From the IMG/VR virus record IMGVR_UViG_2534682338_000010, positions 1 to 33,953 of that record: DNA of 33,953 nt, one strand, 5' to 3'. This document shows, one piece after another, positions 6,781 to 24,006 of the stretch (the stretch's first letter is position 1; each line of letters begins with the position of its first letter). A model generated the notes under the pieces. That model searched no databases. It saw only the letters and a program-made list of their open reading frames with translations, and was not told where the DNA came from. Origin of the DNA: a virus. Its lineage: Duplodnaviria; Heunggongvirae; Uroviricota; Caudoviricetes. The position numbers and the translations under genes are program-made.

Positions 6781-9700
6781 TTAAGAAACAGTAATACCGG
6801 TAGTTGCTTTTTTAGTTACCATTACCGTTAAATCACTGATCCATGTGCTAGGCGTCCAGTTGTTGATTGCGCTTGATTGCACTTCAAAGGTCAAGGTCAC
6901 AGCACCCTTACCCGCTGGCATATCAATAACACCTGAGTAAAGACCAGTATTACCGCCATACGCCCTATTATACAACTCTGACCCATTCTTACGAACAATC
7001 AGGCGACAGGTGTCGTAATAGGTATTATTGTTCGACCCTTCACGCGCTCGCAATCCACCAAAACTAACAGCCGGAATAACGATTTGACGATCGAACTTGT
7101 GATCATCTTCAACGCGAACAGTGACCGTTCCCTGTGGATAACCAGCATAACCATTATCAACGTTAACATCACGATGCGGGAACTTACGTCCAATCACCTT
7201 AACGAAATCACCCTTAACCTGAGTAGCTTCAAGCATACCCTTAATAACACAGCTAGAGTTAATCGTGACGTTGTTCAGAGTACCAGAATCAGCAGTGATA
7301 TTACCTTTAACGGTTGCATTCATGAACGTAGCGGACCCGTTCTTGTTGATATGCCATCCGGTGGACCCGTTCCAGTTGGAAGACTGGATATAGTTACCGA
7401 TTTTAGCGTTATCAATTGCACCGTTTACGATCTTCGCGTTAGTGATTGCCCCGTCCTGAATCTTCGCGCTGTTAATTGCAGCATTGCCGATTTTAGCCGT
7501 GGTAATTGCCGCATCATTAATCTGGGCTGTACCAATTGCAGCATTACGAATCATCGCATTATCGAGATAAACCTTGTTACCTTCGATACCAAACGGGCAT
7601 ACTTCCGATCCGTTCTGTGGAGCTACCGCGATTTTATCAGCATTAAAGATGATTCTCGTCGGTTGTGCCGGATCGTTGGTTGCGCTCATGTGAATACCAG
7701 CCACGCGACCATCTGCATTAACCGCCAGATTATATTTGCTGTTAATGGTTCCCTTCAAAGCATCGATTTTTACATCTGCTTCCTGATTCACGCCAGCAAT
7801 CTTGCCATCCATTTCTACCCGAACTTGATCAATCTTGCTTGCGCTTGCTGCCTCACTGGTAGCAATTGCTTGTTTCAGGGTAGTAGCAGATGCGCTAACT
7901 TCTTTGGTGATATCGCCTTTCAATTCAGCTTTAACCTGGTCGATCTTAGTGGAACTTGCTTGATCACCAGAGACAATCAGACTCTTGAGAGTATCGGCTG
8001 AGGCTTGCACCGTCTGCCCTGTTTCTGTAGTGATTTGCTTATGCATTGCATCAATTTTAGCATCGGCATTAGCGCCAGCTTGAGCAATAGCATCAGCGAT
8101 GGTTTCATCTAAGCGATCTTGTAAACCAATCAGGTCTTCCAGTGCTTCTTTGTCCTGATCGTCCCAGCTAATTGTAGATCTCATTTGCATGAAATAAGGT
8201 TCAGACCAAACAGCATCATCCATACCGAAAATATCGTAATGTGCCGCACGAAGATAATAATCACCATCAGCCAAATCAAAGGAAGTATGGCTAACACTAT
8301 TCGTGCTTACTGCCCTTGCATCGGAGAAAGTGTTATCGGTTGCATACTGGATGATTGACCCTGCATAATCATGTTCTACGTCATCTGCCCAGCTAACAAA
8401 CACACTATTAAAGCCACCACGCGCACTAAAACCTTTCATTGGCTTATGTTGTGGGTTGATAGCCACTAAACGCGCTGGGGCGCTCTCTGAGTTGTTATAG
8501 CCCTTAGCCGATACTTCTACCGTCAGTTGACGCGAAAGGCCGTTAAACTGGTTCATATCAAGCGTATAAGTCCATGATTCAGGATCGCGGGTACGGTACT
8601 GAATAGACTTACCAGCCTTGTTAGTCACCTTGATAATGTATGCTTCAAACAGGTCACTAAACTTGTTAGTTTCACCGTTGATCTCAACATCTAAGCCTTG
8701 CTGGTTTTCCCATTCGATAATCAGATCATTACCTTCGAAAGTTCCTGGCGTGCTACCCTGATTTTTGATTCGAATAACCGGAGTCGGCAATTCATAGGTA
8801 ACAGTCGGATTCTGGTTAATCAGTTCTACCCAATCGGATCGAGCGATGATACCGAAAGCACAAACTCGGTAATCATAAGAGCGATCTTTTGCCAGTGCAT
8901 TGACACTGAAAATTTGCTGTGAAGTCTGTCCCAGCTTAATCCAGTTAGGCGATCCACTTACACGGTAATCAATCTGGAAGCCGTAGCGGTTAAAATCTTC
9001 CGGTGCATCCCATGTCAAAGTAACGTTTTTACCGTAAATCGTCTCACCAGTTGCCTTAATCCTGAAATTAGTAGGCTTCTGTACTGTCATTGAATCCGGT
9101 AAACCACTTGGTCTATTGTCTGGAGTTGCCGCATAGTTCAGGTCAGTATAAACCTGAGAATTATATTCTGTGGCGGTGATCGTCATCATCCCAGCAATAC
9201 CAGAATCAATCGAGCGGTCAATTGCAGTAATACGCCAAAGTGAATTATTCAGTTTTAATTCATCATAGGTTACGCTGATAACGTCCCAAACTTCGGCAGT
9301 GAATGCGTCAGTAGTCATAAAGCTGATAACCTGAGTGATACGAGATTTATTTCGCTCAATGCTCGCGAGTTTATCAATCTGATCTTTAGACTTAACGAAA
9401 CGATATTCTACATCCTTAGCAATAATTCGACCATCTGCGCGAACAGTAGCATCGTTTTCAGCATCAGCCGGATAACGTAGCATTTGCTCTGAATAGTCAA
9501 TTGATGGTTCTTGATACATCGCGTTAATGGTATTGAAATAACCGTTAGTGCCACCTGTTTTCAGTGATACCTTACCCATCATGATATTGTCTTCATTGAA
9601 GGTATGCTTAACAATATCAGGAGCATCCAGTTTCAGCGTAATACGTCCAAAGGATTCGAACATCACCCCGCCGAAAGTCTGCATAAGATTAGTCAAGTTC

Positions 9701-10557
9701 TCTTTAAAGCTGGCGTTCGGATCACATGCACCGTTTGAATGTAGATCCATCTGGCGTACTTGTTTACGTACTTTCAGGAATGAATCAACGTTAATGTTTT
9801 CAATTGGTACGGATAAGCCATATTTTTCATTTGTTAGGTAGTGGAAAATCTGATCCACGCCGTTAGTGCTAGCCTCAATAGCATTGGTTTCAAGGTTACG
9901 GATTTTAAGGCCGCAAACGTCTACTGCTACCTGGCTATTTGGCTGGAGAATATCAACACCAGCAGCAAGAGATTTGTCATCACGACGTAACACAATACAC
10001 ATGGTCGCAATGCCGTTACCCTTGAAAGCGTCGGTCCAGTCTGAGCCTAAATGACGTTTTGCCAGCGACAAAGCGGTGTTAGGATTCTTGCCCGTGCGGA
10101 ACTCGACTTCTAATACTTTACGATATTCTTCTTTAATGTTGCCCTTATCGAGAATACCATCACGGATCGTCATGTTCTTACCAACAAGAACATTTTTATT
10201 ATCAATAAAGAGTGCTTTGTAATGGTCGATTTCACCCTCGGCTACAGAGAAGATTTGCACTAGCTTATTGTTTTCTTGCTTAGAAACTGCTTTGTAAACA
10301 CAGTTTGTGCCAGTGCGGGTAGTACCGAAAACGACTGGTATCACCGCTTTCGGATCGTTTGATGTTCCTAGTGTCACCGCATTATCTGGGCTTTGTACTT
10401 TAGGTGTTTTTGGTGCGCCTACAGTGGAAGCGATCAAAGTCATTGCACCAGCAGCCATACCGATAGCGACTGCGGTCATAACAGAAAATGTTGCAGCAGC
10501 AGCCATCCCAGCAGACGCACCAGCAATAACCGCGCCTACCAATACTTCAAATCCCAT
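6781..10557 (-). CDS. central tail fibre / host-specificity protein (lambda J-like) with fibronectin-III-like regions and C-terminal repeat array
   Basis: 1258 aa; position after the tail-tip genes; repeated xAAIxxAKI units near residues 1005-1055; hydrophobic Gly/Ala-rich N-terminus. Confidence 0.75.
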   Translation of the reverse strand: MGFEVLVGAVIAGASAGMAAAATFSVMTAVAIGMAAGAMTLIASTVGAPKTPKVQSPDNAVTLGTSNDPKAVIPVVFGTTRTGTNCVYKAVSKQENNKLVQIFSVAEGEIDHYKALFIDNKNVLVGKNMTIRDGILDKGNIKEEYRKVLEVEFRTGKNPNTALSLAKRHLGSDWTDAFKGNGIATMCIVLRRDDKSLAAGVDILQPNSQVAVDVCGLKIRNLETNAIEASTNGVDQIFHYLTNEKYGLSVPIENINVDSFLKVRKQVRQMDLHSNGACDPNASFKENLTNLMQTFGGVMFESFGRITLKLDAPDIVKHTFNEDNIMMGKVSLKTGGTNGYFNTINAMYQEPSIDYSEQMLRYPADAENDATVRADGRIIAKDVEYRFVKSKDQIDKLASIERNKSRITQVISFMTTDAFTAEVWDVISVTYDELKLNNSLWRITAIDRSIDSGIAGMMTITATEYNSQVYTDLNYAATPDNRPSGLPDSMTVQKPTNFRIKATGETIYGKNVTLTWDAPEDFNRYGFQIDYRVSGSPNWIKLGQTSQQIFSVNALAKDRSYDYRVCAFGIIARSDWVELINQNPTVTYELPTPVIRIKNQGSTPGTFEGNDLIIEWENQQGLDVEINGETNKFSDLFEAYIIKVTNKAGKSIQYRTRDPESWTYTLDMNQFNGLSRQLTVEVSAKGYNNSESAPARLVAINPQHKPMKGFSARGGFNSVFVSWADDVEHDYAGSIIQYATDNTFSDARAVSTNSVSHTSFDLADGDYYLRAAHYDIFGMDDAVWSEPYFMQMRSTISWDDQDKEALEDLIGLQDRLDETIADAIAQAGANADAKIDAMHKQITTETGQTVQASADTLKSLIVSGDQASSTKIDQVKAELKGDITKEVSASATTLKQAIATSEAASASKIDQVRVEMDGKIAGVNQEADVKIDALKGTINSKYNLAVNADGRVAGIHMSATNDPAQPTRIIFNADKIAVAPQNGSEVCPFGIEGNKVYLDNAMIRNAAIGTAQINDAAITTAKIGNAAINSAKIQDGAITNAKIVNGAIDNAKIGNYIQSSNWNGSTGWHINKNGSATFMNATVKGNITADSGTLNNVTINSSCVIKGMLEATQVKGDFVKVIGRKFPHRDVNVDNGYAGYPQGTVTVRVEDDHKFDRQIVIPAVSFGGLRAREGSNNNTYYDTCRLIVRKNGSELYNRAYGGNTGLYSGVIDMPAGKGAVTLTFEVQSSAINNWTPSTWISDLTVMVTKKATTGITVS

Positions 10558-11022: not shown

Positions 11023-11676
11023 TTATTTCTTCGATGAATGCCACTTGCTTTCGCTATTCCACTTCCCGGCACGGGAGAAGAATAGATCGTTCTCGTTTCC
11101 AACATAGGAACGGTGGATACCATCGGAGGCATGACTACGAGCGTTTTTATCTAGAACTTCCCAGATACTATTAAGCTGAAATTCTGATTCGTTTTTACAC
11201 TCATCATCTTCATGTTCGATGTTAATCCCGATGGAATCGACTACCCCACGGAAAACAGGGTAAGTGGTTTCAACTTTGCCCGTGTTGGGGTTAAGGAAAA
11301 CCATCTCGATTTTCACATCAGATTTATCGAATTGCTTGTTTCGAATCAGGGTAATGTATTCTTCGCGAACGTTAGAAACAGTTACGTTGATCCCGTTGTT
11401 GTTGATCTCCTTCTCTTCGGTATTCGATGAGATTTGAAGAAAATCACCCGTTGCGAGATACGTAAATCCGTTATAGTCCAAATCGAAATACCCATCTGTA
11501 AGCCGTAGAACGTCCCCTGACGCTGTTATCACTTCGATAATGTGAAACATCGATCCAGTGGAAAAAAGCTGCGGTAGCGTCAATCTAGACACGTTCTGAC
11601 CTGTCTGGTCGTTGTAGACCTCGATGAAGTCCAGATTAGTGCATAGTTTGCTGAATGATTCCTGAATAGTTGCCAT
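11023..11676 (-). CDS. minor tail protein (lambda L-position)
   Basis: ATG overlaps the upstream stop (TAATG coupling) and is preceded by GGAGA; about 217 aa. Confidence 0.5.
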   Translation of the reverse strand: MATIQESFSKLCTNLDFIEVYNDQTGQNVSRLTLPQLFSTGSMFHIIEVITASGDVLRLTDGYFDLDYNGFTYLATGDFLQISSNTEEKEINNNGINVTVSNVREEYITLIRNKQFDKSDVKIEMVFLNPNTGKVETTYPVFRGVVDSIGINIEHEDDECKNESEFQLNSIWEVLDKNARSHASDGIHRSYVGNENDLFFSRAGKWNSESKWHSSKK

Positions 11677-12236
11677 TATACATTCTCCACTAATTCGAAT
11701 TTCATCTTGCCAATCTGGGCGATCTTCCAATCGATATTTTCAGTTTTGAGAACAAATTCACCTTCTACGTTTTGATACTTGATCACCTCACCCGCCAGGA
11801 CGTTTTGACGCAAGTTAGGGAAGAGTTTCATTTCACCACCTGATTTCACGTCTTCGGTGATCGTGTAGATTTTCTTGTGGTTCTCAAACTGGATGATAGT
11901 TCCCGCTTTCAGTGTTCCGGTGAAGTTGGAGATTCTCACCTTACGCCCACCGCGAGCAGTACCAGCAGCAGCCGTTACCATCTGGCGTACATCACCTGTA
12001 TATTTTGAAAAGTAAGACAGTGGCACATTGAAAGGACGACCAAAAAGGTGACGTGCTACAAATTCTTTTACTTCGTTAATATCCTGAGCCATGAAATTCG
12101 CGGTAAATTCTGCTTCGTAAAAATGGATGCCAGTAAAGCGACGCTGGAACTTACCGGAGATAGATTGCGCCTTGAAGAAAGGTTGTTTTGATTTAAGAGT
12201 AAAATCTGTGATTTTAATATTCTTTGATTTGAACAT
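11676..12236 (-). CDS. distal tail protein / minor tail protein (lambda M-position)
   Basis: 186-aa ORF immediately downstream of the tape-measure gene. Confidence 0.5.
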   Translation of the reverse strand: MFKSKNIKITDFTLKSKQPFFKAQSISGKFQRRFTGIHFYEAEFTANFMAQDINEVKEFVARHLFGRPFNVPLSYFSKYTGDVRQMVTAAAGTARGGRKVRISNFTGTLKAGTIIQFENHKKIYTITEDVKSGGEMKLFPNLRQNVLAGEVIKYQNVEGEFVLKTENIDWKIAQIGKMKFELVENV

Positions 12237-12286: not shown

Positions 12287-14716
12287 TTACATCTTACGGC
12301 GCTGTGCGTCTTCTACCGCCTGAGCAACTAACTTAGCGTGACGTTTGATGGCGTCCATGACCATCTTGTCTGAGCTATTAACGTTGCCGTTAATGTTCAA
12401 AGGTGCGTTAACTTCAATCGGTTGAGAGTTGCCACCGCCTGATTTTTGAGCAGCAAGGAAGTCTTTCAAATCGCCGTTAGTACGCTGATCAACTACTCGT
12501 TCACCCTTATCAAGCAACCATGTACCCTCACGAGGGATGTTATCAATACCATCGTGAGCCATACCGCTAACGTTAGTAGACTTGATGTTTGCGATGTTCC
12601 CCATGTTCTGAGAAACAGCCAATGCAGCAGCAGCGATTTTTTGACCTGTGGTTACGTTGGTCGGATCGTTCCATGCATCGGTAGCAGCCGTCCACATGTT
12701 CACCGTCGCTTGTCCAATGGAGAATGCTTTATGAGCAGTGAAAGCCATCTGCATAGCTTTAGTGTTTTCCTGCCCGAAGAGAGTCATTGCAGCAGCAAAA
12801 CCGCCGTACATATCATCGGCTATTGACTGACGAGCATCAGCATATTTCTTCTCAATTGCAGCCATTCGTTTTTGATGGTTTTCATTGAGTTTTTCTAATG
12901 CTTCCATCCGTTTAGCCGGATCGGTGATCCCATCAATCTTGAGTTTATCGGTTTTATAATCTTGTTCCGCTTCCGATTTCTCTTTATCGATTGCATTAAA
13001 TTTAGCAAACGGGTTATTTGAGTCTTGATAGTCTAAGCTATTGGTCAACTGATTGGTTTTAAAACCATCCATTCCATGCAAAGAATCTTCAATCTGTGAA
13101 TAACTTTGTTCGGTATCATTCACACGACGCATATATTCTTCGTAGGAGATAGCCTTGCCATCAAGTAACCGTTTATGGCTTTCTAACTCGTTGTCCCTGA
13201 TTTGTTGCAATTGTGTTAAGGCATTCAAAGCATCAACCGGATCAGCACCTAAAATCATCTTGTATACGTTTTCAGTATTCTGATCGATTAAGGATTGGCG
13301 TTTCGCGGCTGCGTCTTGCTGAGAGATTAAGCCCAGATCTAAAGCAGTGTCCAAATCTTTCAAGCTGGCTTCTAACTGCTTGTTCTGAGAAGCAATAGAC
13401 GCGGCGACCTGCCCTTGCAATTTAACATCAAGTGCATTCAGACGCTTGATTGCATCCTCACGTTCTTTCTGTGCTTTTTCTGCGGCTTCCTTAGCCTTTT
13501 TAGCTTTCTCTTCCGCTTTCTTCTTGGCTTTTTCCTCTTCTTTCTTTTCTTTACCAGACTTACCCAATGAAGCTGGTCGAGTTGGTGTAGTCGGGATAGT
13601 CAAATCACGGTTAGGATCTGCCTTGCGGGTTAGATGTTCCCCGTTATCGACAACAATCAGAGAGCCATTTTTCTTATAAGAATCACCAAAACGTTTCTTA
13701 AATCCTTCAACATCAAAGCCAGCAGTACGAGGATCAACACCAGCACCACGGATCGCGGCCTTTTCCCAATCTGCCAGATTATTCCAACGCTTTTCTTTAT
13801 TGTACTTGTCAATAATCTTTTGAGCGTCTTTATGGTTGGCGTTAAGAATACCACCAGTTGCGGTCTTGCCTTCTTTATTCAGTCGATCTAATGCCCTGAA
13901 TAGAGAACTCTTTTCCCAATCAATATTAAACCAGTCAAATAACCAGTTTAAGCTATCAACAAGCGGACCAGTAATGGTCATGCCGACACCTTTCAGGTTA
14001 TTTTCCAGCTTATTAATATTCTGAGAGAATTTATCATATTTTTTAGCGTTTTCTTCGGTGACGTTAACAGATTGATTCTGAATAGCGATCATCGCCTCTT
14101 GAGCACTATTATATTTCTCAAGCTGGCTGGTCATATGGCTTGAATCACTGGCTAAAGATTCCATCATGAACTTGATTTCAGCCATTGATTTTCCGGCTTT
14201 CTTCATGTCATAGAACACTTGGATCGCCGCTTTCATACCACCTTGCGGATCTGTCATGAAGTGAGCATAGTTTTCTAACTTAAGGCCAACCGATTCTAAA
14301 TCATCGGCAATACCACCACCGTTAGCCCACGCATCACCCATCTTATCTAAGGTGTCTTTGTTGATATCACCAAATTTTTCAACTGTTAGGCCAGTACCAG
14401 AAAATTCCTTTTCCAGTCTTTGAAGGGATTCAATCGAGAGTCCGGTCGCCTTAGATACTTCTGAATATTGTTTAACGTATTCCGCGCCAGCTTTAGCGGC
14501 TGCAACCACTGCGGTCGCAACTAAGCCGATACCACCAGCAGCCAAACCAGCAGAGCCAGCGATCCCACGAAGAGATCCAGTCAGACCAGATAAGCCACCA
14601 CCAAAATCAATATTACTTGCCTTTTCAGACAAACTATCGAGAAGGTCGGCGGCTTCATTGGTACTTCTCCTTAGACCTTTATTATCCCCTTCTATTGTTA
14701 CTATATGTTTTGTCAT
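12287..14716 (-). CDS. tail tape-measure protein
   Basis: 809 aa, long coiled-coil/Ala-Lys-Glu-rich central region (KKEEEKAKKKAEEKAKKAKEAAEKAQKERE), preceded by two small chaperone-like ORFs. Confidence 0.8.
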   Translation of the reverse strand: MTKHIVTIEGDNKGLRRSTNEAADLLDSLSEKASNIDFGGGLSGLTGSLRGIAGSAGLAAGGIGLVATAVVAAAKAGAEYVKQYSEVSKATGLSIESLQRLEKEFSGTGLTVEKFGDINKDTLDKMGDAWANGGGIADDLESVGLKLENYAHFMTDPQGGMKAAIQVFYDMKKAGKSMAEIKFMMESLASDSSHMTSQLEKYNSAQEAMIAIQNQSVNVTEENAKKYDKFSQNINKLENNLKGVGMTITGPLVDSLNWLFDWFNIDWEKSSLFRALDRLNKEGKTATGGILNANHKDAQKIIDKYNKEKRWNNLADWEKAAIRGAGVDPRTAGFDVEGFKKRFGDSYKKNGSLIVVDNGEHLTRKADPNRDLTIPTTPTRPASLGKSGKEKKEEEKAKKKAEEKAKKAKEAAEKAQKEREDAIKRLNALDVKLQGQVAASIASQNKQLEASLKDLDTALDLGLISQQDAAAKRQSLIDQNTENVYKMILGADPVDALNALTQLQQIRDNELESHKRLLDGKAISYEEYMRRVNDTEQSYSQIEDSLHGMDGFKTNQLTNSLDYQDSNNPFAKFNAIDKEKSEAEQDYKTDKLKIDGITDPAKRMEALEKLNENHQKRMAAIEKKYADARQSIADDMYGGFAAAMTLFGQENTKAMQMAFTAHKAFSIGQATVNMWTAATDAWNDPTNVTTGQKIAAAALAVSQNMGNIANIKSTNVSGMAHDGIDNIPREGTWLLDKGERVVDQRTNGDLKDFLAAQKSGGGNSQPIEVNAPLNINGNVNSSDKMVMDAIKRHAKLVAQAVEDAQRRKM

Positions 14717-16657: not shown

Positions 16658-19600
16658 TTATTTAGTTGCTTTCAGTTCGGCTAATTCAGCTTTAGTTTCG
16701 GCAAGTTCTTTAGCCATAGCATCAAACTTAGCGGTCATTTCCTGCATTGCTTTGATGATTAAAGCATTGACAGCAGAGTTAGAAATAGTCTTGATTGCTT
16801 CTGGATGTTCTGGATCTTCGGTGGATTGAATACCTACTGCTTCCGGCAATACTTTTTCCAGATCCTGAGCAATAATACCTACTTCGCGTTTAATCACCGT
16901 GTCATCGGAAAGAGATTTAACTTTATCGTAGGTGTAGACTTTCAGTGAGTTTACTTTCTCTAATGCGCCGTCCTGTAATTCTTCCTTGTTAATTTTCAAA
17001 CGGGAGTCGGAGCGAATGTAAACATCGTTAAACGAACCGTTACGACCTGCGGTAAAGTCACCAGCAGCGTTAAAGTCAAAAGTTGCATCGTGTACGTGCA
17101 TACGCACCATAGCATTTCCGATAGTACCGCTAGGAACATGTACACCCATTGCTGCGATATGATATTTACCTTGATGGGTTGCTTTCCATACGTTATGAGC
17201 GGAATCGGTTGATTGTTGACAGTCGACCTGAATACCAGAAGCACGATCACGCCAGCTAGTCCAACTACCGCCAGCAACAGAACCACGAATCAGACCATTA
17301 CCGCCACCGGAAACAGTACCCGTTTCAAGTTGAATCATCTTACCGCCGAATTTCCAGACTTCGGTTTGTTTCTCACCGCGCATACGCATAACGCCAGCAT
17401 CATCGCAGTACAACAGACCCAATTCTAAGCCATTTGGATCTCTAAACCACAAATGCTTATTGCCACTGCGACGAAACTCAATATCAGCACCGTTAAGCGT
17501 GATATTACCGCCAGTGTGAATTGCTTTAGGTTTAACAGTACCGTTGATGGCAAACTCGATTAATTCAGTACCCGGACCGCCCGGTCGTTGTGTGTACCAG
17601 TGCCAACCGCTTTCGTCCGCACATTCGAATACTTGTTTACGAGCATCAGCACCCCACGCACGGATATTAAAGCTAGAAGTAGCTGTATTTTTGCCCCACG
17701 TTAATTTTCCTTCGGTAGTTAAATCCCCTCGGAAATGAGCAAGTAAGCCACCAGTACCGTTACGTTCTGTAGTAAAGTGAGTTCCGCTAGTGTCCTGGAA
17801 TTGCAAAACGTTATATCGATTGGCATTACTATTCCCCCAATGGTTAATCGTAAAAGAATCCATCGACTGATTTCCACCAGCAGAGAAAGTAAGCAGTCCT
17901 TTTTCTAAGAATACATTGTTGCTAAAACGGGCAGCACGGCTATCTCTTTCAAGAACTAATGCACCTTCGTTACCATCACCGCCTAAAGTAACTTTACCGT
18001 TAGTCAAATCGTAAATGAACGGTCTGTTTCCATTCCATCCGCCCAATTTATCATTTTCGGCAGTAGAAAGAAGATAAACTTTACCACCGTCATTACGCCA
18101 GAATGCACCATAATTACCGTAGATCATGCGGTAGGCGTCGCTATTCATTGAGATGAATTGAGCGTTAGTATAAACTCGTTTTGTGTTACCGGTTGCAAGT
18201 TCGATCTGTCCGTCGATGTGGTGACGAATAGAAGTACCACCTACATCACTATACCATTCAAAAACGTTAGTATCAGCATTACCATAACCGATCCACCCTT
18301 GACGGGTAATAGATCCAGTACGATTATCTTGAAACGCAATATGGTTGGATTGACCAGCAGGACGCCGCAAGGTAATAACATTACTACCTCCACCCAACAT
18401 CATTCGACCAGAAAGAATATTACCTTTATGAGTCCCAGCAATAGAGCTACTAGATTCAACGGATAGAATCTCCTGAGCATCTGTACTACCCGTGGCGAGT
18501 CGATAAGTAGAACCCTGAACCGTCTCATGCCAGATCATTTCGTTATAGTTGCTACGGAATTTACGAATATATTTTCGTCCAGTACCTCTATCATTGCTTA
18601 GATGAACAATGTCATAGCTGTTTTGTGTATTGTCGTCAAAACTCAACACACCACGTTTATTTTCTGTGTTAAAAAGAGTTACGTTGCGACCACCGATAAC
18701 ACCAACGGAAGGTTTAATTAACGTGGCTTCCGGCGTATCATAAACCGTCAAACTTACATAAACAGATTTCCCATATTCGACAATGACGTTATCGGTATAA
18801 CGCTGATATTTCACGTAGATATCATAGTTATCACCGGAAGTATTGACAGCAAATACCTCAAAATCTTTGTTTGTATTTCTACGGTATGCAATTACGTTAA
18901 GACCTTTAGGTCTATCGTTACCACTACGGAGAAGAATTTCTACTACATCAACTTGGTCATATGCCGTAACGTTGTAACCATTACCACCATGAATACGGAA
19001 AAACACACTACGCCCGTTTTGTGGAATTGTTGCGGTTGCCAATTTGAAATATGCAGATACGTTTTCGCTAGAATTGGGAACAGACATAACGACGTTTTTA
19101 ACAAACATCTTATCAACTTCGGCTTTGGTGTATGCACCAATCTCGCCAGGAGTCGGCTTATCACCTTCGTGATACATCTTATAGCTAAAGTTCTTCTGTC
19201 CTTCTCTATCAAAACCATAGGTTTCAACACGAGATCCACCAGACGCATAACGGAAAGTAAATCCGCGACCGTGCGCTTTACCGGCAGAGTGAGGAACGTT
19301 AAGAGTTAGATCCATGAGTCCATCTTGACCATTGGTACGGAAAGCACCAAAGTAGTTAAGATCTCTCGCTGTCTGGTCTTCCAAATAGTTAGCTGTTTTG
19401 GTTAACAGATAGCCGTGATGGTAAGTGTTGGTATTCTTCTTGATGTAAGCAGCATCGGCACTACCTTCAATAGAATCAATTCGCTGGTTAGCTGCGGCAA
19501 TTGCGGCATCAGTAGAAGATTTATTCTGGTCTACCTTGTTGTTAATTGCTGTATGGTTGCTATTAACTGTCCCCGTAAGATTGGTGATCTTCGTGTCGGC

Positions 19601-20194
19601 ATCTTTCTTATTATCCGCTACCGTCTTTTCTATTGCTGATTTATTTGCTTCGACAGTATTCGTTAAGTTGGTAACGTTGGTATTCGTCTGATCAACCCGC
19701 GCATTAATATCTGTCTTGTTCTTGTTAATTGTCGCGTTGATAGTATCGCGGGTTGAAGTAATAGTCTGATTCAGTTCAGTCTTAGCAGCCGCCAGAGCGT
19801 TAGCAGCTTCGGTTTTATTGTTACCTACTGTGGTAGTCAAAGCATCAATTCGTTTGTTGGCTGCGGTATCGCCAGCAGTGATTGAAGCATTGAGAGTATC
19901 ACGGGTAGAAGTGATAGTCTGATTCAGTTCAGCTTTAGCACTAGCCAGATTATTAGCGGCTTCTTGTTTGTTGGAAGCAATAACACGGTCAGTGCTAGTT
20001 TTGTTATTGTCTACTTTCGTATTCAGTTCAGCGTGTTTTTCTGGAGAAACACTAATTTGGACTACGTTATTATTTTTGTCTTTGGTGTAAATCACATGAT
20101 CCGCCAACTGTAAGGCGATTTCACCCTGTGATAATTGTTCCGGCGTTGGTTTTTTACCCGCCGTCTGTGTGCGTTTAAATTGGATCGACTGCAT
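16658..20194 (-). CDS. fibre protein with coiled-coil repeat shaft and C-terminal intramolecular chaperone (S74-like autoproteolytic) domain
   Basis: 1178 aa; N-terminal repeated NQTITSTRDT-type heptad units; C-terminal DSRLKINKEEL...VYTYDK...GIIAQDLEKVLPEAV typical of self-cleaving fibre chaperone domains. Confidence 0.75.
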   Translation of the reverse strand: MQSIQFKRTQTAGKKPTPEQLSQGEIALQLADHVIYTKDKNNNVVQISVSPEKHAELNTKVDNNKTSTDRVIASNKQEAANNLASAKAELNQTITSTRDTLNASITAGDTAANKRIDALTTTVGNNKTEAANALAAAKTELNQTITSTRDTINATINKNKTDINARVDQTNTNVTNLTNTVEANKSAIEKTVADNKKDADTKITNLTGTVNSNHTAINNKVDQNKSSTDAAIAAANQRIDSIEGSADAAYIKKNTNTYHHGYLLTKTANYLEDQTARDLNYFGAFRTNGQDGLMDLTLNVPHSAGKAHGRGFTFRYASGGSRVETYGFDREGQKNFSYKMYHEGDKPTPGEIGAYTKAEVDKMFVKNVVMSVPNSSENVSAYFKLATATIPQNGRSVFFRIHGGNGYNVTAYDQVDVVEILLRSGNDRPKGLNVIAYRRNTNKDFEVFAVNTSGDNYDIYVKYQRYTDNVIVEYGKSVYVSLTVYDTPEATLIKPSVGVIGGRNVTLFNTENKRGVLSFDDNTQNSYDIVHLSNDRGTGRKYIRKFRSNYNEMIWHETVQGSTYRLATGSTDAQEILSVESSSSIAGTHKGNILSGRMMLGGGSNVITLRRPAGQSNHIAFQDNRTGSITRQGWIGYGNADTNVFEWYSDVGGTSIRHHIDGQIELATGNTKRVYTNAQFISMNSDAYRMIYGNYGAFWRNDGGKVYLLSTAENDKLGGWNGNRPFIYDLTNGKVTLGGDGNEGALVLERDSRAARFSNNVFLEKGLLTFSAGGNQSMDSFTINHWGNSNANRYNVLQFQDTSGTHFTTERNGTGGLLAHFRGDLTTEGKLTWGKNTATSSFNIRAWGADARKQVFECADESGWHWYTQRPGGPGTELIEFAINGTVKPKAIHTGGNITLNGADIEFRRSGNKHLWFRDPNGLELGLLYCDDAGVMRMRGEKQTEVWKFGGKMIQLETGTVSGGGNGLIRGSVAGGSWTSWRDRASGIQVDCQQSTDSAHNVWKATHQGKYHIAAMGVHVPSGTIGNAMVRMHVHDATFDFNAAGDFTAGRNGSFNDVYIRSDSRLKINKEELQDGALEKVNSLKVYTYDKVKSLSDDTVIKREVGIIAQDLEKVLPEAVGIQSTEDPEHPEAIKTISNSAVNALIIKAMQEMTAKFDAMAKELAETKAELAELKATK

Positions 20195-22002: not shown

Positions 22003-24006
22003 TCATTCAGCGGAGATGTGAAGAACTTTCAGAGCTTCCGGCTGAACTACGGTGAAGTCCAGGTCTACCCAGATACGCGGAACGATAGCAGACTGTGCGC
22101 GGTAAGTGGTGTCGTCCATATCCAGTTCCAGACCACCCCATTCACCGATCATGATACCGGAGAAATCACCCAGAACGATGTGGTCTGCCGGAATAACGCC
22201 AGAAGTAACTACATCGTAACCAGCCAGTTTGCCGTTTTCGATGATATAACCGGAAACGCCGTTATCTTTCAGGGTAGATTCCAGTTCAGCAGCAGTTGCA
22301 CCGCTCATTGCAAACTTGATGGACTGTGCCGGAACGCCAGCGTCGGTCAGTGCTGCAATTTCTTTCAGGAAGTCTTTGTAGCTAAAAGCGGCTTTCTTAG
22401 TAACGCGACCACCGTCTACCAGTTGCTTAACCAGACCTTTCGGACCTCGAGTATTATCTTTGTCAGACAGAATCAGTTGTTCCAGTTTGATGCGAACAGC
22501 TTTGTTAATATGATCAGTGATCAGGGTAGCAATATTCGGAACAGTTTTCAGAGACTGACGGCTGATCGGGTTGCCACCAGCAAACGTCTTAGGAGCCATT
22601 TTCACGTTTGCAAATTCAGCTTTGCTTTCCGGTGCAGCACCGTTTTCATCAACGAAACCGAAAGCATCAACGCTGGAAGTAGTCATTTTCGGTACAGCAA
22701 TCGGAGCATTCAGACCAGACAGAACAGTCACACCCAGACGACCCAGAACAGACTGCGGAAGCAGCATTTCTACATAGGATTCGGTCAGCAGTTTTTCGTC
22801 GGTTACAGCAGTCAGAGTAGCTTTGGTGTTACCATCAGCAGCAGCACGCAGAGCAGCAGCCGGAACGAATACAGAGCCACCGCGAGCAGCACGACCACGC
22901 TGCATTGCAGCACCAGCAGCCATTGCAGAAAACTCGGCTTCGTTAGCACCCAGAGCTTCACCATCTACCAGGGAGCGAATTACGTTGTTCAGGTCAAAAG
23001 TTTTTTCCATTTTAGAGTCCTTAATTTGTTCGTTATTACGTTGAGCAGTAGCGATTTTATTTAGTGTCTTAGTGCGGAATGCTTCCGGCGTCATGTCTTT
23101 AATTGCTAATGCGCGTTTCAATTCTTCGTCATCAATATTTAGTTCGCGTGCAATTTCGCGAATTTCTAATTCATCTTCTTCGGAACGTTCAGCCACTTCC
23201 TCGGTTTTTTCTTCTTCATCCGGAGCGGCTTCACGTTCTTCTTTTACTTCTTCTGCTTCCCGAACAGTTGAACTATCATCATCAACACTTTCAGGATGTT
23301 CAGCGTCTTTTCCGTCTTCGAGATTTTCATCTTCTTTATTCTCTTCAACTTGGCGCTCTTGAGTTTCTTCAACTTCCGGTTCTTTATTTTCTTCTACCGG
23401 AGTTTCTTCAACCTGAGCGGATTCTTGTTCTTCTTTGATTTCTTCGATTTGTTCTTTAGTCATATCGCGTTTAGCCTCCAAATTAACTGTGATAGTATTT
23501 AGAGAGCGATTTAAACCGACAGAATCATCGGCAGGGACCGTCACAAATGAAATTTCAAAAGGCGCCCACTTAGTAACAATCAATTGCCCTTTGGTGTAGT
23601 CGATGTGATATTCTTTAATGTCATAACCGACAGAAATTTTTTCCATCGTACCTTCAATGACTTTATTGCGAATATCATTAGCCAAAGTGCCATGCTTAGA
23701 GAATTTAACCAGAGCACGACCTACGTTATCCGCATCGATTCGAGCGTTACAAACGACACCAATATGATTATCGAAATTATGATTGAACAGCAACGGAGCG
23801 TTATTATTCAGACGGGACAGATCAACCGCTTCCGGTGTATGTACCAGAATTTCATCTAATACCACCATTTCTTGATTTTGCTCATCCCAGAATTGGCGCT
23901 GATAAGGCTGTTCACTGGAGAAAGCAATTTCAAATTCGTATTGATCGTTATGCCCTTCGTTAATAACTCCACCGTAACCGTTAAGATCGCGGCGAAATTT
24001 AAGCAT
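22003..24006 (-). CDS. prohead protease / acidic scaffold (delta-like) / HK97-fold major capsid protein fusion
   Basis: 667 aa: N-terminal about 170 aa protease-like (ends EISFVTVPAD), about 150 aa extremely Glu-rich linker, C-terminal about 330 aa capsid-like. Confidence 0.75.
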   Translation of the reverse strand: MLKFRRDLNGYGGVINEGHNDQYEFEIAFSSEQPYQRQFWDEQNQEMVVLDEILVHTPEAVDLSRLNNNAPLLFNHNFDNHIGVVCNARIDADNVGRALVKFSKHGTLANDIRNKVIEGTMEKISVGYDIKEYHIDYTKGQLIVTKWAPFEISFVTVPADDSVGLNRSLNTITVNLEAKRDMTKEQIEEIKEEQESAQVEETPVEENKEPEVEETQERQVEENKEDENLEDGKDAEHPESVDDDSSTVREAEEVKEEREAAPDEEEKTEEVAERSEEDELEIREIARELNIDDEELKRALAIKDMTPEAFRTKTLNKIATAQRNNEQIKDSKMEKTFDLNNVIRSLVDGEALGANEAEFSAMAAGAAMQRGRAARGGSVFVPAAALRAAADGNTKATLTAVTDEKLLTESYVEMLLPQSVLGRLGVTVLSGLNAPIAVPKMTTSSVDAFGFVDENGAAPESKAEFANVKMAPKTFAGGNPISRQSLKTVPNIATLITDHINKAVRIKLEQLILSDKDNTRGPKGLVKQLVDGGRVTKKAAFSYKDFLKEIAALTDAGVPAQSIKFAMSGATAAELESTLKDNGVSGYIIENGKLAGYDVVTSGVIPADHIVLGDFSGIMIGEWGGLELDMDDTTYRAQSAIVPRIWVDLDFTVVQPEALKVLHISAE

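Follow-up and report, generated by a model that had tools for sequence, protein, structure and literature searches.

Does a tandem repeat array in the central tail fibre of a prophage determine host range through its copy number, or is it a fixed structural part of the fibre? The question is raised by a J-like gene in the 33,953-nucleotide (nt) stretch of viral DNA analysed here (IMG/VR virus record IMGVR_UViG_2534682338_000010, positions 1 to 33,953; below, the window), whose product of 1258 amino acids (aa) contains a run of tandem units upstream of its receptor-binding domain. The initial annotation had taken this array for a likely host-range hot spot prone to expansion and contraction. 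We assign a probability of roughly 60% to another reading, namely, that the array is a rigid intertwined trimeric beta-helix spacer in the central straight fibre; it is based on the position of the array, its residue pattern, a model of the monomer, and cryo-electron microscopy (cryo-EM) of a homologue. Comparison of related alleles indicates that the repeat number is not a determinant of host range and that the array is not an expanding and contracting hot spot. The parts of the fibre on which the argument is built are the following.

6781–10557, minus strand: gene of the J-like central tail fibre, or tail tip protein (1258 aa; open reading frame list, Pfam, PHROG, and PDB matches)

7474–7767, minus strand: PF09327, 'tail tip fibre / gpJ central straight fibre' (residues 931–1028; Pfam)

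7387–7566, minus strand: decapeptide (2 × pentad) repeat array (residues 998–1057, 12 pentads; translation, periodicity, shuffle test)

7354–7386, minus strand: conserved cap motif QSSNWNGSTGW closing the array (residues 1058–1068; homologue conservation)

7189–7371, minus strand: distal straight-fibre segment (residues ~1063–1123; homologous to lambda gpJ ~946–1000 in PDB alignments)

6784–7188, minus strand: Ig-like receptor-binding domain PF12421 (residues 1124–1258; Pfam, 7.7e-34)

The identification of the protein as a J-like central fibre is well founded. It matches PF12421 (117 bits, cut-off 26.2) and PF09327 (E 5.8e-18, 65.4 bits, cut-off 22), and its PDB matches to the structures of lambda gpJ and A8 gpJ span 1e-35 to 1e-54; in particular, the PDB sequence search aligned residues 1067–1258 with 'A8 gpJ 713' (9wca) at 2e-54 and with lambda gpJ (8iyk) at 4e-35, and the region upstream of the array with T1 gp33, the F2 pyocin protein PyoF10, and 'J-like gp24'. 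Residues 20–785 are matched by PHROG tail fibre families. Two further Pfam matches are weak, PF13550 (Phage-tail_3; 19.7 bits, under the cut-off of 23) and fn3 (18.5, under 25), and a precomputed PF13550 match is present in close homologues. By homology to gpJ, the fibre is probably a homotrimer at the tail tip. A 'phage tail tip protein' that is 90–92% identical to it is found in many E. coli genomes. An open reading frame of 305 aa on the plus strand (7084–8001) runs antisense over the array; given the very strong homology of the J-like gene, we took it for a spurious by-product of the composition of the coding strand.

The repeat itself is beyond doubt, and all five units quoted in the initial annotation are found verbatim in the minus-strand translation of 7300–7620. 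The span reported there, 7393–7545 on the minus strand (residues 1005–1055), is the core of a slightly longer array at 7387–7566. A hydrophobic residue occupies each fifth position from residue 998 or 1003 to residue 1053, which gives 11–12 pentads of the form I-x-x-A-x, the first of them being LDNAM, while the true period, or super-period, is 10 aa. The array matches itself at 18 positions at lag 5 and at 26 positions at lag 10, values not reached in any of 20,000 shuffled versions of these 55 residues, and self-match analysis found no comparable run of pentads elsewhere in the 1258-aa protein. At the DNA level, five copies of 30 nt are located at 7393–7542 with an exact spacing of 30 nt, and the nucleotide identity of the array at lag 30 is 0.61, compared with a background of about 0.27. 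These copies are only 60–73% identical to the reference copy, the pairwise identity between units is 43–67%, and Tandem Repeats Finder did not report the array at a score of at least 30. Hence the repeat is visible in the nucleotides, as had been claimed; it is genuine but degenerate.

The array is situated between the PF09327 domain and the distal prism with its lambda-type Ig receptor-binding domain, the latter lying about 70 residues downstream. The C-terminal positions of the PF09327 model (approximately 81–105) are the pentads themselves. Since the array matches these positions twice (81–101 and 81–120), it is an expansion of about eight pentads over the family consensus. In T1 gp33, F2 PyoF10, and gp24 of 23gd, the place of the array is taken by four to five pentads followed by an IQSxNW cap, and the cap motif is common to these three proteins and to 24 of the 150 listed representatives. 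The array extends a type of linker that is already known, and its protein has been annotated in many genomes; its novelty is modest.

Several lines of evidence favour a trimeric beta-helix for this linker. Firstly, the sequence pattern of the array is that of short strand-turn units in which small and large hydrophobic residues alternate inward, and the flanks of the array are homologous to the lambda gpJ prism. Secondly, in the AlphaFold2 (AF2) monomer model of residues 975–1085, the array has a predicted local distance difference test score (pLDDT) of 85–94, and in that of residues 925–1258 one of 75–82; in neither model did DSSP assign a strand, bridge, or helix to it. A confidently modelled open spiral is what would be expected of one chain taken from a three-start helix, unlike a closed solenoid. 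Foldseek with the repeat-only model yielded no significant match in PDB or in BFVD. The best non-significant PDB matches (E ~2) were chains of VgrS/VgrG1, SU10 gp16, and HylP hyaluronidase, all of them trimeric beta-helices, with no pentapeptide-repeat protein among the PDB matches, and the closest BFVD models were 'gpJ central straight fibre' proteins and the phage My1 pb4 homologue. With the 334-residue model as the query, matches to the receptor-binding domain prevailed. Thirdly, a homologous segment has been seen experimentally: a preprint on the post-ejection F7 pyocin (10.64898/2026.01.28.702463; coordinates 9YGC) reports that its central fibre, as seen by cryo-EM, passes from the lower end of a beta-prism (1083–1119) to a 'short intertwined beta-helix (1119–1167)' and on to a narrower prism. 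In F2 PyoF10, the pentads and IQS end exactly at residue 1167. If numbering is shared between F2 and F7, the pentads would correspond to the C-terminal part of the F7 intertwined beta-helix.

The following arrangement is proposed. Each decapeptide would consist of two non-equivalent pentads, with a small residue (i-2) and Ile (i) pointing inward, Lys or Ala (i-1) pointing outward, and then a polar two-residue turn. Three chains wound together would form an intertwined beta-helix of triangular section. It would connect two prisms, the wide upper beta-prism (the PF09327 part) and the narrower distal one, which bears the receptor-binding domain. At one rung (4.8 Å) per pentad, the 12 pentads would measure some 5–6 nm; compared with the linker of T1 gp33 and of the F2 pyocin fibre (approximately four pentads), or with the 12 residues of lambda gpJ, this would be a gain of about 4 nm. 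The array would thereby keep the distance of the receptor-binding domain constant and may pass on the twist that receptor binding triggers in lambda and T5 fibres. Of the two roles that the initial annotation had offered, setting of fibre length and receptor binding by a beta-helix, the former survives, as a length-adding beta-helix is the best structural reading, while receptor binding belongs to the separate Ig domain.

Several observations weigh against the trimeric beta-helix. The array was modelled as an AF2 monomer, which cannot show intertwining of chains; the Foldseek matches to trimeric beta-helices are at E ~2; the F7 beta-helix consists of the pentads only on the assumption of common residue numbering; and the repeat part is not experimentally resolved in the solved entries of T1 gp33, F2 PyoF10, P-SCSP1u gp28, and SU10 gp16. 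Moreover, Ala at i-2 and Ile at i also fit a single-chain solenoid of the pentapeptide type, to which there are weak matches, and the sole natural indel, 20 aa in length, equals one four-pentad coil of such a solenoid.

The main rival fold is built on the latter points. In it, each chain would form its own right-handed quadrilateral solenoid of the pentapeptide type with four pentads (20 aa) per coil and about three coils, and three such solenoids would stand side by side, adding only about 1.5 nm. The pattern A-x-[I/V/L]-x-x is in register with that of NP275-NP276 (2j8k, E 0.015), and profile matches to designed 'beta1' solenoids reach approximately 1e-5. The long-array relatives described below score 19–39.5 bits with Pentapeptide models and thus approach or reach the Pentapeptide_4 threshold (39.5 for P0129, cut-off 38), and the JGI/IMG label of P0129 is 'YjbI with pentapeptide repeats'. 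Pentad counts of 4, 8, and 12 recur, and in the long arrays the identity at lag 20 (0.414) slightly exceeds that at lag 10; it is 0.40 at lags 30 and 40, and periodicity of 15, 20, or 30 aa does not separate three-sided from four-sided models. We nevertheless regard the solenoid as unlikely, for several reasons. A search of the 91-aa array region against Pfam retrieved PF09327 alone, with no Pentapeptide model even at E ≤ 10. Where the pentapeptide consensus reads A-[D/N]-[L/F]-x-x, the array has A/G at i-2, I/V/L at i, and D/N/T at i+2, with K/A instead of the canonical D/N at i-1. Adjacent pentads are non-equivalent, as the identity at lag 5 is 0.13, the background level, compared with 0.38–0.41 at lag 10. 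The AF2 models contain no intrachain beta-ladder, and Foldseek retrieved no pentapeptide-repeat structure, although a monomer model of a trimeric segment carries limited weight on this point. Finally, the flanking segments in lambda are intertwined trimeric prisms, and the homologous pyocin segment was described as an intertwined beta-helix. A coiled-coil or fold-switching array was also considered and rejected: almost all decapeptides contain Gly or Asn, and AF2 predicts no helix.

Comparison of alleles shows that the array also contains a point of exchange.

7483–7506, minus strand: mosaic junction inside the array (residues ~1018–1025, between pentads 4 and 5; drop in nucleotide identity)

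Relative to the alleles of E. coli UTME-12 and OkiPb01713, nucleotide identity is 93–100% up to residue ~1018, drops within about 15 codons to 46–53% at residues 1033–1043, returns to 82–84% in an island formed by the cap, and then falls a second time. Sliding identity of the proteins gives the same picture of a junction inside the array. Relative to a third allele, nucleotide identity remains at 88–100% to residue ~1120 and then collapses, and therefore a second junction is placed at the start of the receptor-binding domain (~1125). Pentads 5–9 occur as two alleles; pentads 5–10 and the distal prism (1063–1118) are always co-inherited, with perfect linkage of D1 and D2 types. The types of receptor-binding domain, at least 12 among the homologues, assort independently.

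It might be argued from these data that recombination is what chiefly maintains the array, as a linker whose proximal pentads and cap serve as patches of homology for swaps of the distal module, the structure being secondary. The sharp junction between pentads 4 and 5 and the subsequent island of identity are in accord with that, as is the pairing of upstream type 0 with two types of distal module. Megablast alignments to other genomes start at query positions 587–590, just distal to the array, and phage DCP80, whose protein is 39% identical overall, shares a stretch of 24 residues. The argument is weakened in that only three of the four possible U/D1 combinations were observed and that the receptor-binding domain is exchanged elsewhere, at the junction near residue 1125; the conserved pentad count and the pattern of inward and outward residues point to a structural constraint. 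As the main reason for the array, recombination is improbable. It is, however, compatible with the spacer and does not exclude it: the array would be tolerated as a crossover site for the distal module because all rungs are equivalent and the sequence is partly conserved. Judging by the alleles compared, the array is such a tolerated crossover site, and the exchange of host-range determinants is independent of its repeat number. Of the host-range hot spot proposed initially, what remains is the mosaic junction inside the array; the receptor-binding domain is swapped elsewhere.

The repeat number itself is nearly invariant. The protein database lists 120 closest cluster representatives from E. 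coli, Salmonella, and Providencia, with 70–92% identity to the fibre, and in 119 of them the number of pentads is identical despite receptor-binding domains of 12 types; the Salmonella group of representatives lacks PF12421 altogether. The exception, P0095, comes from a single contig of 7.8 kb and has a clean deletion of 20 aa (residues 1017–1036), i.e., of two decapeptides. Twelve pentads are also found in DCP80 and in six other representatives with 41–70% identity over residues 925–1125 (P0121, P0147, P0153, P0186, P0226, and P0240), while P0270 has eight, and other architectures have 19–64 or more. Retention of the count at 12 across different receptor-binding domains is as expected of a structural element.

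The repeat number was to be compared among relatives with different host range, and its near-invariance across the 12 receptor-binding-domain types is essentially the outcome that the initial annotation had named as refuting its proposal. That proposal, that the copy number changes readily, in the manner of a contingency locus, and so alters fibre length or receptor contact and with them host range, is in our estimate very improbable: the units are indeed tandem and in frame, P0095 lacks exactly two decapeptides, and arrays of approximately 4 to 177 pentads occur across the wider family, but the DNA units are 43–73% identical, without long exact repeats, 12 pentads are kept in close and distant representatives alike despite different host genera, the receptor is bound by a separate Ig domain, and polymorphism of length is observed instead in another part of the fibre. 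Slippage-prone repeats would have near-identical DNA units and a variable copy number, and here no copy-number polymorphism was seen among close relatives apart from the one deletion.

The part that does vary in length is an upstream repeat in the shaft.

7783–8004, minus strand: tandem 37-aa duplication in the alpha-helical shaft (residues 852–888 and 889–925; self-match at lag 37)

Its two units are ASADTLKSLIVSGDQASSTKIDQVKAELKGDITKEVS and ASATTLKQAIATSEAASASKIDQVRVEMDGKIAGVNQ. Deletions of 37 aa or 33 aa were observed here in seven representatives (P0061, P0064, P0073, P0084, P0087, P0096, and P0098), and the length classes of 1258 and of 1221, 1226, or 1217 aa are due to this 37-aa or 33-aa indel in the coiled-coil shaft. 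On the evidence of these alignments, the 37-aa coiled-coil repeat is the real copy-number-variable and length-changing element of the fibre among close relatives.

The decapeptide is not restricted to J-like fibres. An exhaustive search with residues 925–1125 retrieved 9131 representative proteins at E ≤ 1e-3, the top matches being giant proteins that reach 4696 aa and contain as many as 40 matched stretches. The family consensus is V/I-T-x-A-K-I-A-D-G-A, often followed by the IQSxNW cap, and among the family members listed, which are the best-scoring ones so that the distribution of pentad counts is biased to long arrays, runs of up to 177 consecutive pentads were found. That longest run, uninterrupted, is in P0144, a protein with no Pfam domain. 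P0129 is a J-like protein (FNIII-A_GpJ and Phage-tail_3) with 102 pentads, and P0131 is a Tal-like protein of the Gram-positive type (Prophage_tail and CBM_4_9) with 107; the family also includes fibres and a trimeric head-decoration protein. Among solved entries, the LME-1 decoration protein carries the repeat as well. In the long arrays, the period is strictly 10 aa, and the identity at lag 5 is at background. Pfam covers the family in part, by the tail of PF09327, DUF5907, and sub-threshold matches to Pentapeptide_4. A phmmer search of the long-array protein P0146 against PDB gave no match, and the PDB matches for long arrays required a profile built from 28 array segments. No description of the decapeptide repeat was found in the literature on tail-fibre pentapeptide repeats or DUF5907. 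We tentatively suggest, while considering it somewhat less probable than its converse, that the decapeptide repeat defines a structurally uncharacterised class of trimeric beta-helix with one pentad per face and 4.8 Å per pentad, resembling pentapeptide repeats in pattern and not in fold. It could then serve as a modular, length-setting phage shaft of 4–177 pentads (about 2–85 nm) in more than 9000 representative proteins of tail tips, Tal type, fibres, and head decorations; the array described here, with its 12 pentads, would be a short example of fixed length that doubles as a crossover site.

For prediction or engineering of host range in lambda-like prophages of E. coli, the determinant to consider is the Ig domain after residue 1124, together with the exchangeable distal-fibre module that starts inside the array. 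The same decapeptide occurs in thousands of phage fibre proteins and has been seen experimentally over a short stretch only; a trimer structure of the compact 12-pentad array would provide the rule by which fibre length follows from repeat count. Perhaps of more use than the claim from which the analysis started are three side observations, namely, the junction between pentads 4 and 5, the variability of the 37-aa coiled-coil repeat, and a decapeptide family that is very large and little described.

The locus is a chromosomal prophage of E. coli. The relevant part of the gene is present, at up to 98% identity, in 55 of 5426 complete E. coli genomes, always on the chromosome, and megablast of the gene against the phage collection gave no match, i.e., no near-identical isolated phage is present there. 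The only long protein-level match in that collection is the above-mentioned protein of Escherichia phage DCP80 (PQ671644.1, 7917–11675); no other phage record contains a full-length relative of the J-like protein. The DCP80 record is 141 kb long, is classified as Straboviridae/Tevenvirinae, and has nearly all genes labelled 'hypothetical'; a tail tip gene of the siphovirus type looks inconsistent with such a T4-like classification.

Within the window, the J-like gene is the last of a block of tape-measure, distal-tail, and tail-tip genes, whose members directly upstream, together with an open reading frame of 191 aa, are on the same strand.

11023–11730, same strand: tail protein gene

11676–12236, same strand: distal tail protein gene

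12287–14716, same strand: tape measure gene

Farther upstream are terminase, portal, head, and T4-gp37-like side-fibre genes, and lysis genes are located downstream. For a protein of 1178 aa (16658–20194, minus strand), the PHROG matches, at 2.6e-142, are to the T4 gp37-like 'long tail fiber distal subunit'; the protein is placed between the head and tail genes of a siphovirus-like module and is presumably a side fibre. An open reading frame of 667 aa (22003–24006, minus strand) has a full-length match to major head protein PHROGs, and there are further matches to head maturation protease families and to 'major head and protease'; possibly, it encodes a fusion of protease and capsid protein.

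Among known systems, lambda gpJ is the natural reference. Its hub domains are followed by a pair of FNIII domains, a shaft of alpha-helices, a prism of beta-sheets known as the 'central straight fibre', and an Ig domain that binds the receptor; on receptor binding, the prism rotates and the shaft flips (PMC11101478). The fibre described here has the same order of domains, i.e., putative hub, putative FNIII, alpha-helical shaft, beta-prism, and Ig receptor-binding domain, as in 8XCK, 8XCJ, and 8IYK, although its N-terminal hub is only distantly related to that of lambda. Residues 951–1007 align with gpJ 876–933 and residues 1067–1257 with gpJ 946–1131; hence the 59 residues of the array (1008–1066) replace about 12 residues of lambda (934–945) within the prism, and gpJ is without an extended pentad array. 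At the distal end, the receptor-binding domain is closest to 'A8 gpJ 713'. In a Foldseek comparison, it is 50% identical (TM score 0.72) to A8 gpJ in 9wcb, the complex with the OmpC porin from E. coli EDL933, and a porin such as OmpC, rather than LamB, is suggested as the receptor of this fibre.

Closer counterparts of the array are found in other tail tips. F2 PyoF10 (25vf) has the same succession as here, a PF09327-type region, pentads starting from FIKNA, and the IQS(N) cap; F-type pyocin fibres differ in having approximately 4–5 pentads compared with 12 and no lambda-type receptor-binding domain on the same chain. At the place of the array, T1 gp33 has IIKNG FITNA MIGNF IQSNNY, its C-terminal part not being resolved in the structure, and gp24 (23gd) has IKNAS INFAQ ITDTL QSNNF. 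The central fibre of T5 is the trimeric spike pb4; its beta-prism or beta-helix, triangular in section and about 20 Å wide, twists on receptor binding. The pb4 homologue from phage My1 is 48% identical to the array model over 77 columns, whereas T5 pb4 itself has no sequence match to the array, and the receptor-binding proteins of T5 and T1 differ from that of this fibre.

Pentapeptide repeat proteins (NP275-NP276 and the MfpA/Qnr type) share with the array the five-residue spacing of hydrophobic residues and an Ala two positions before, and give weak in-register matches; the array differs from them in its period of 10, in K/A instead of D/N at i-1, and in the context of a homotrimeric fibre. 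The long arrays of J-like, Tal-like, and fibre proteins, in part covered by DUF5907, have the same consensus but are 2–15 times longer and are embedded in other architectures, whereas the array described here is short and of fixed length.

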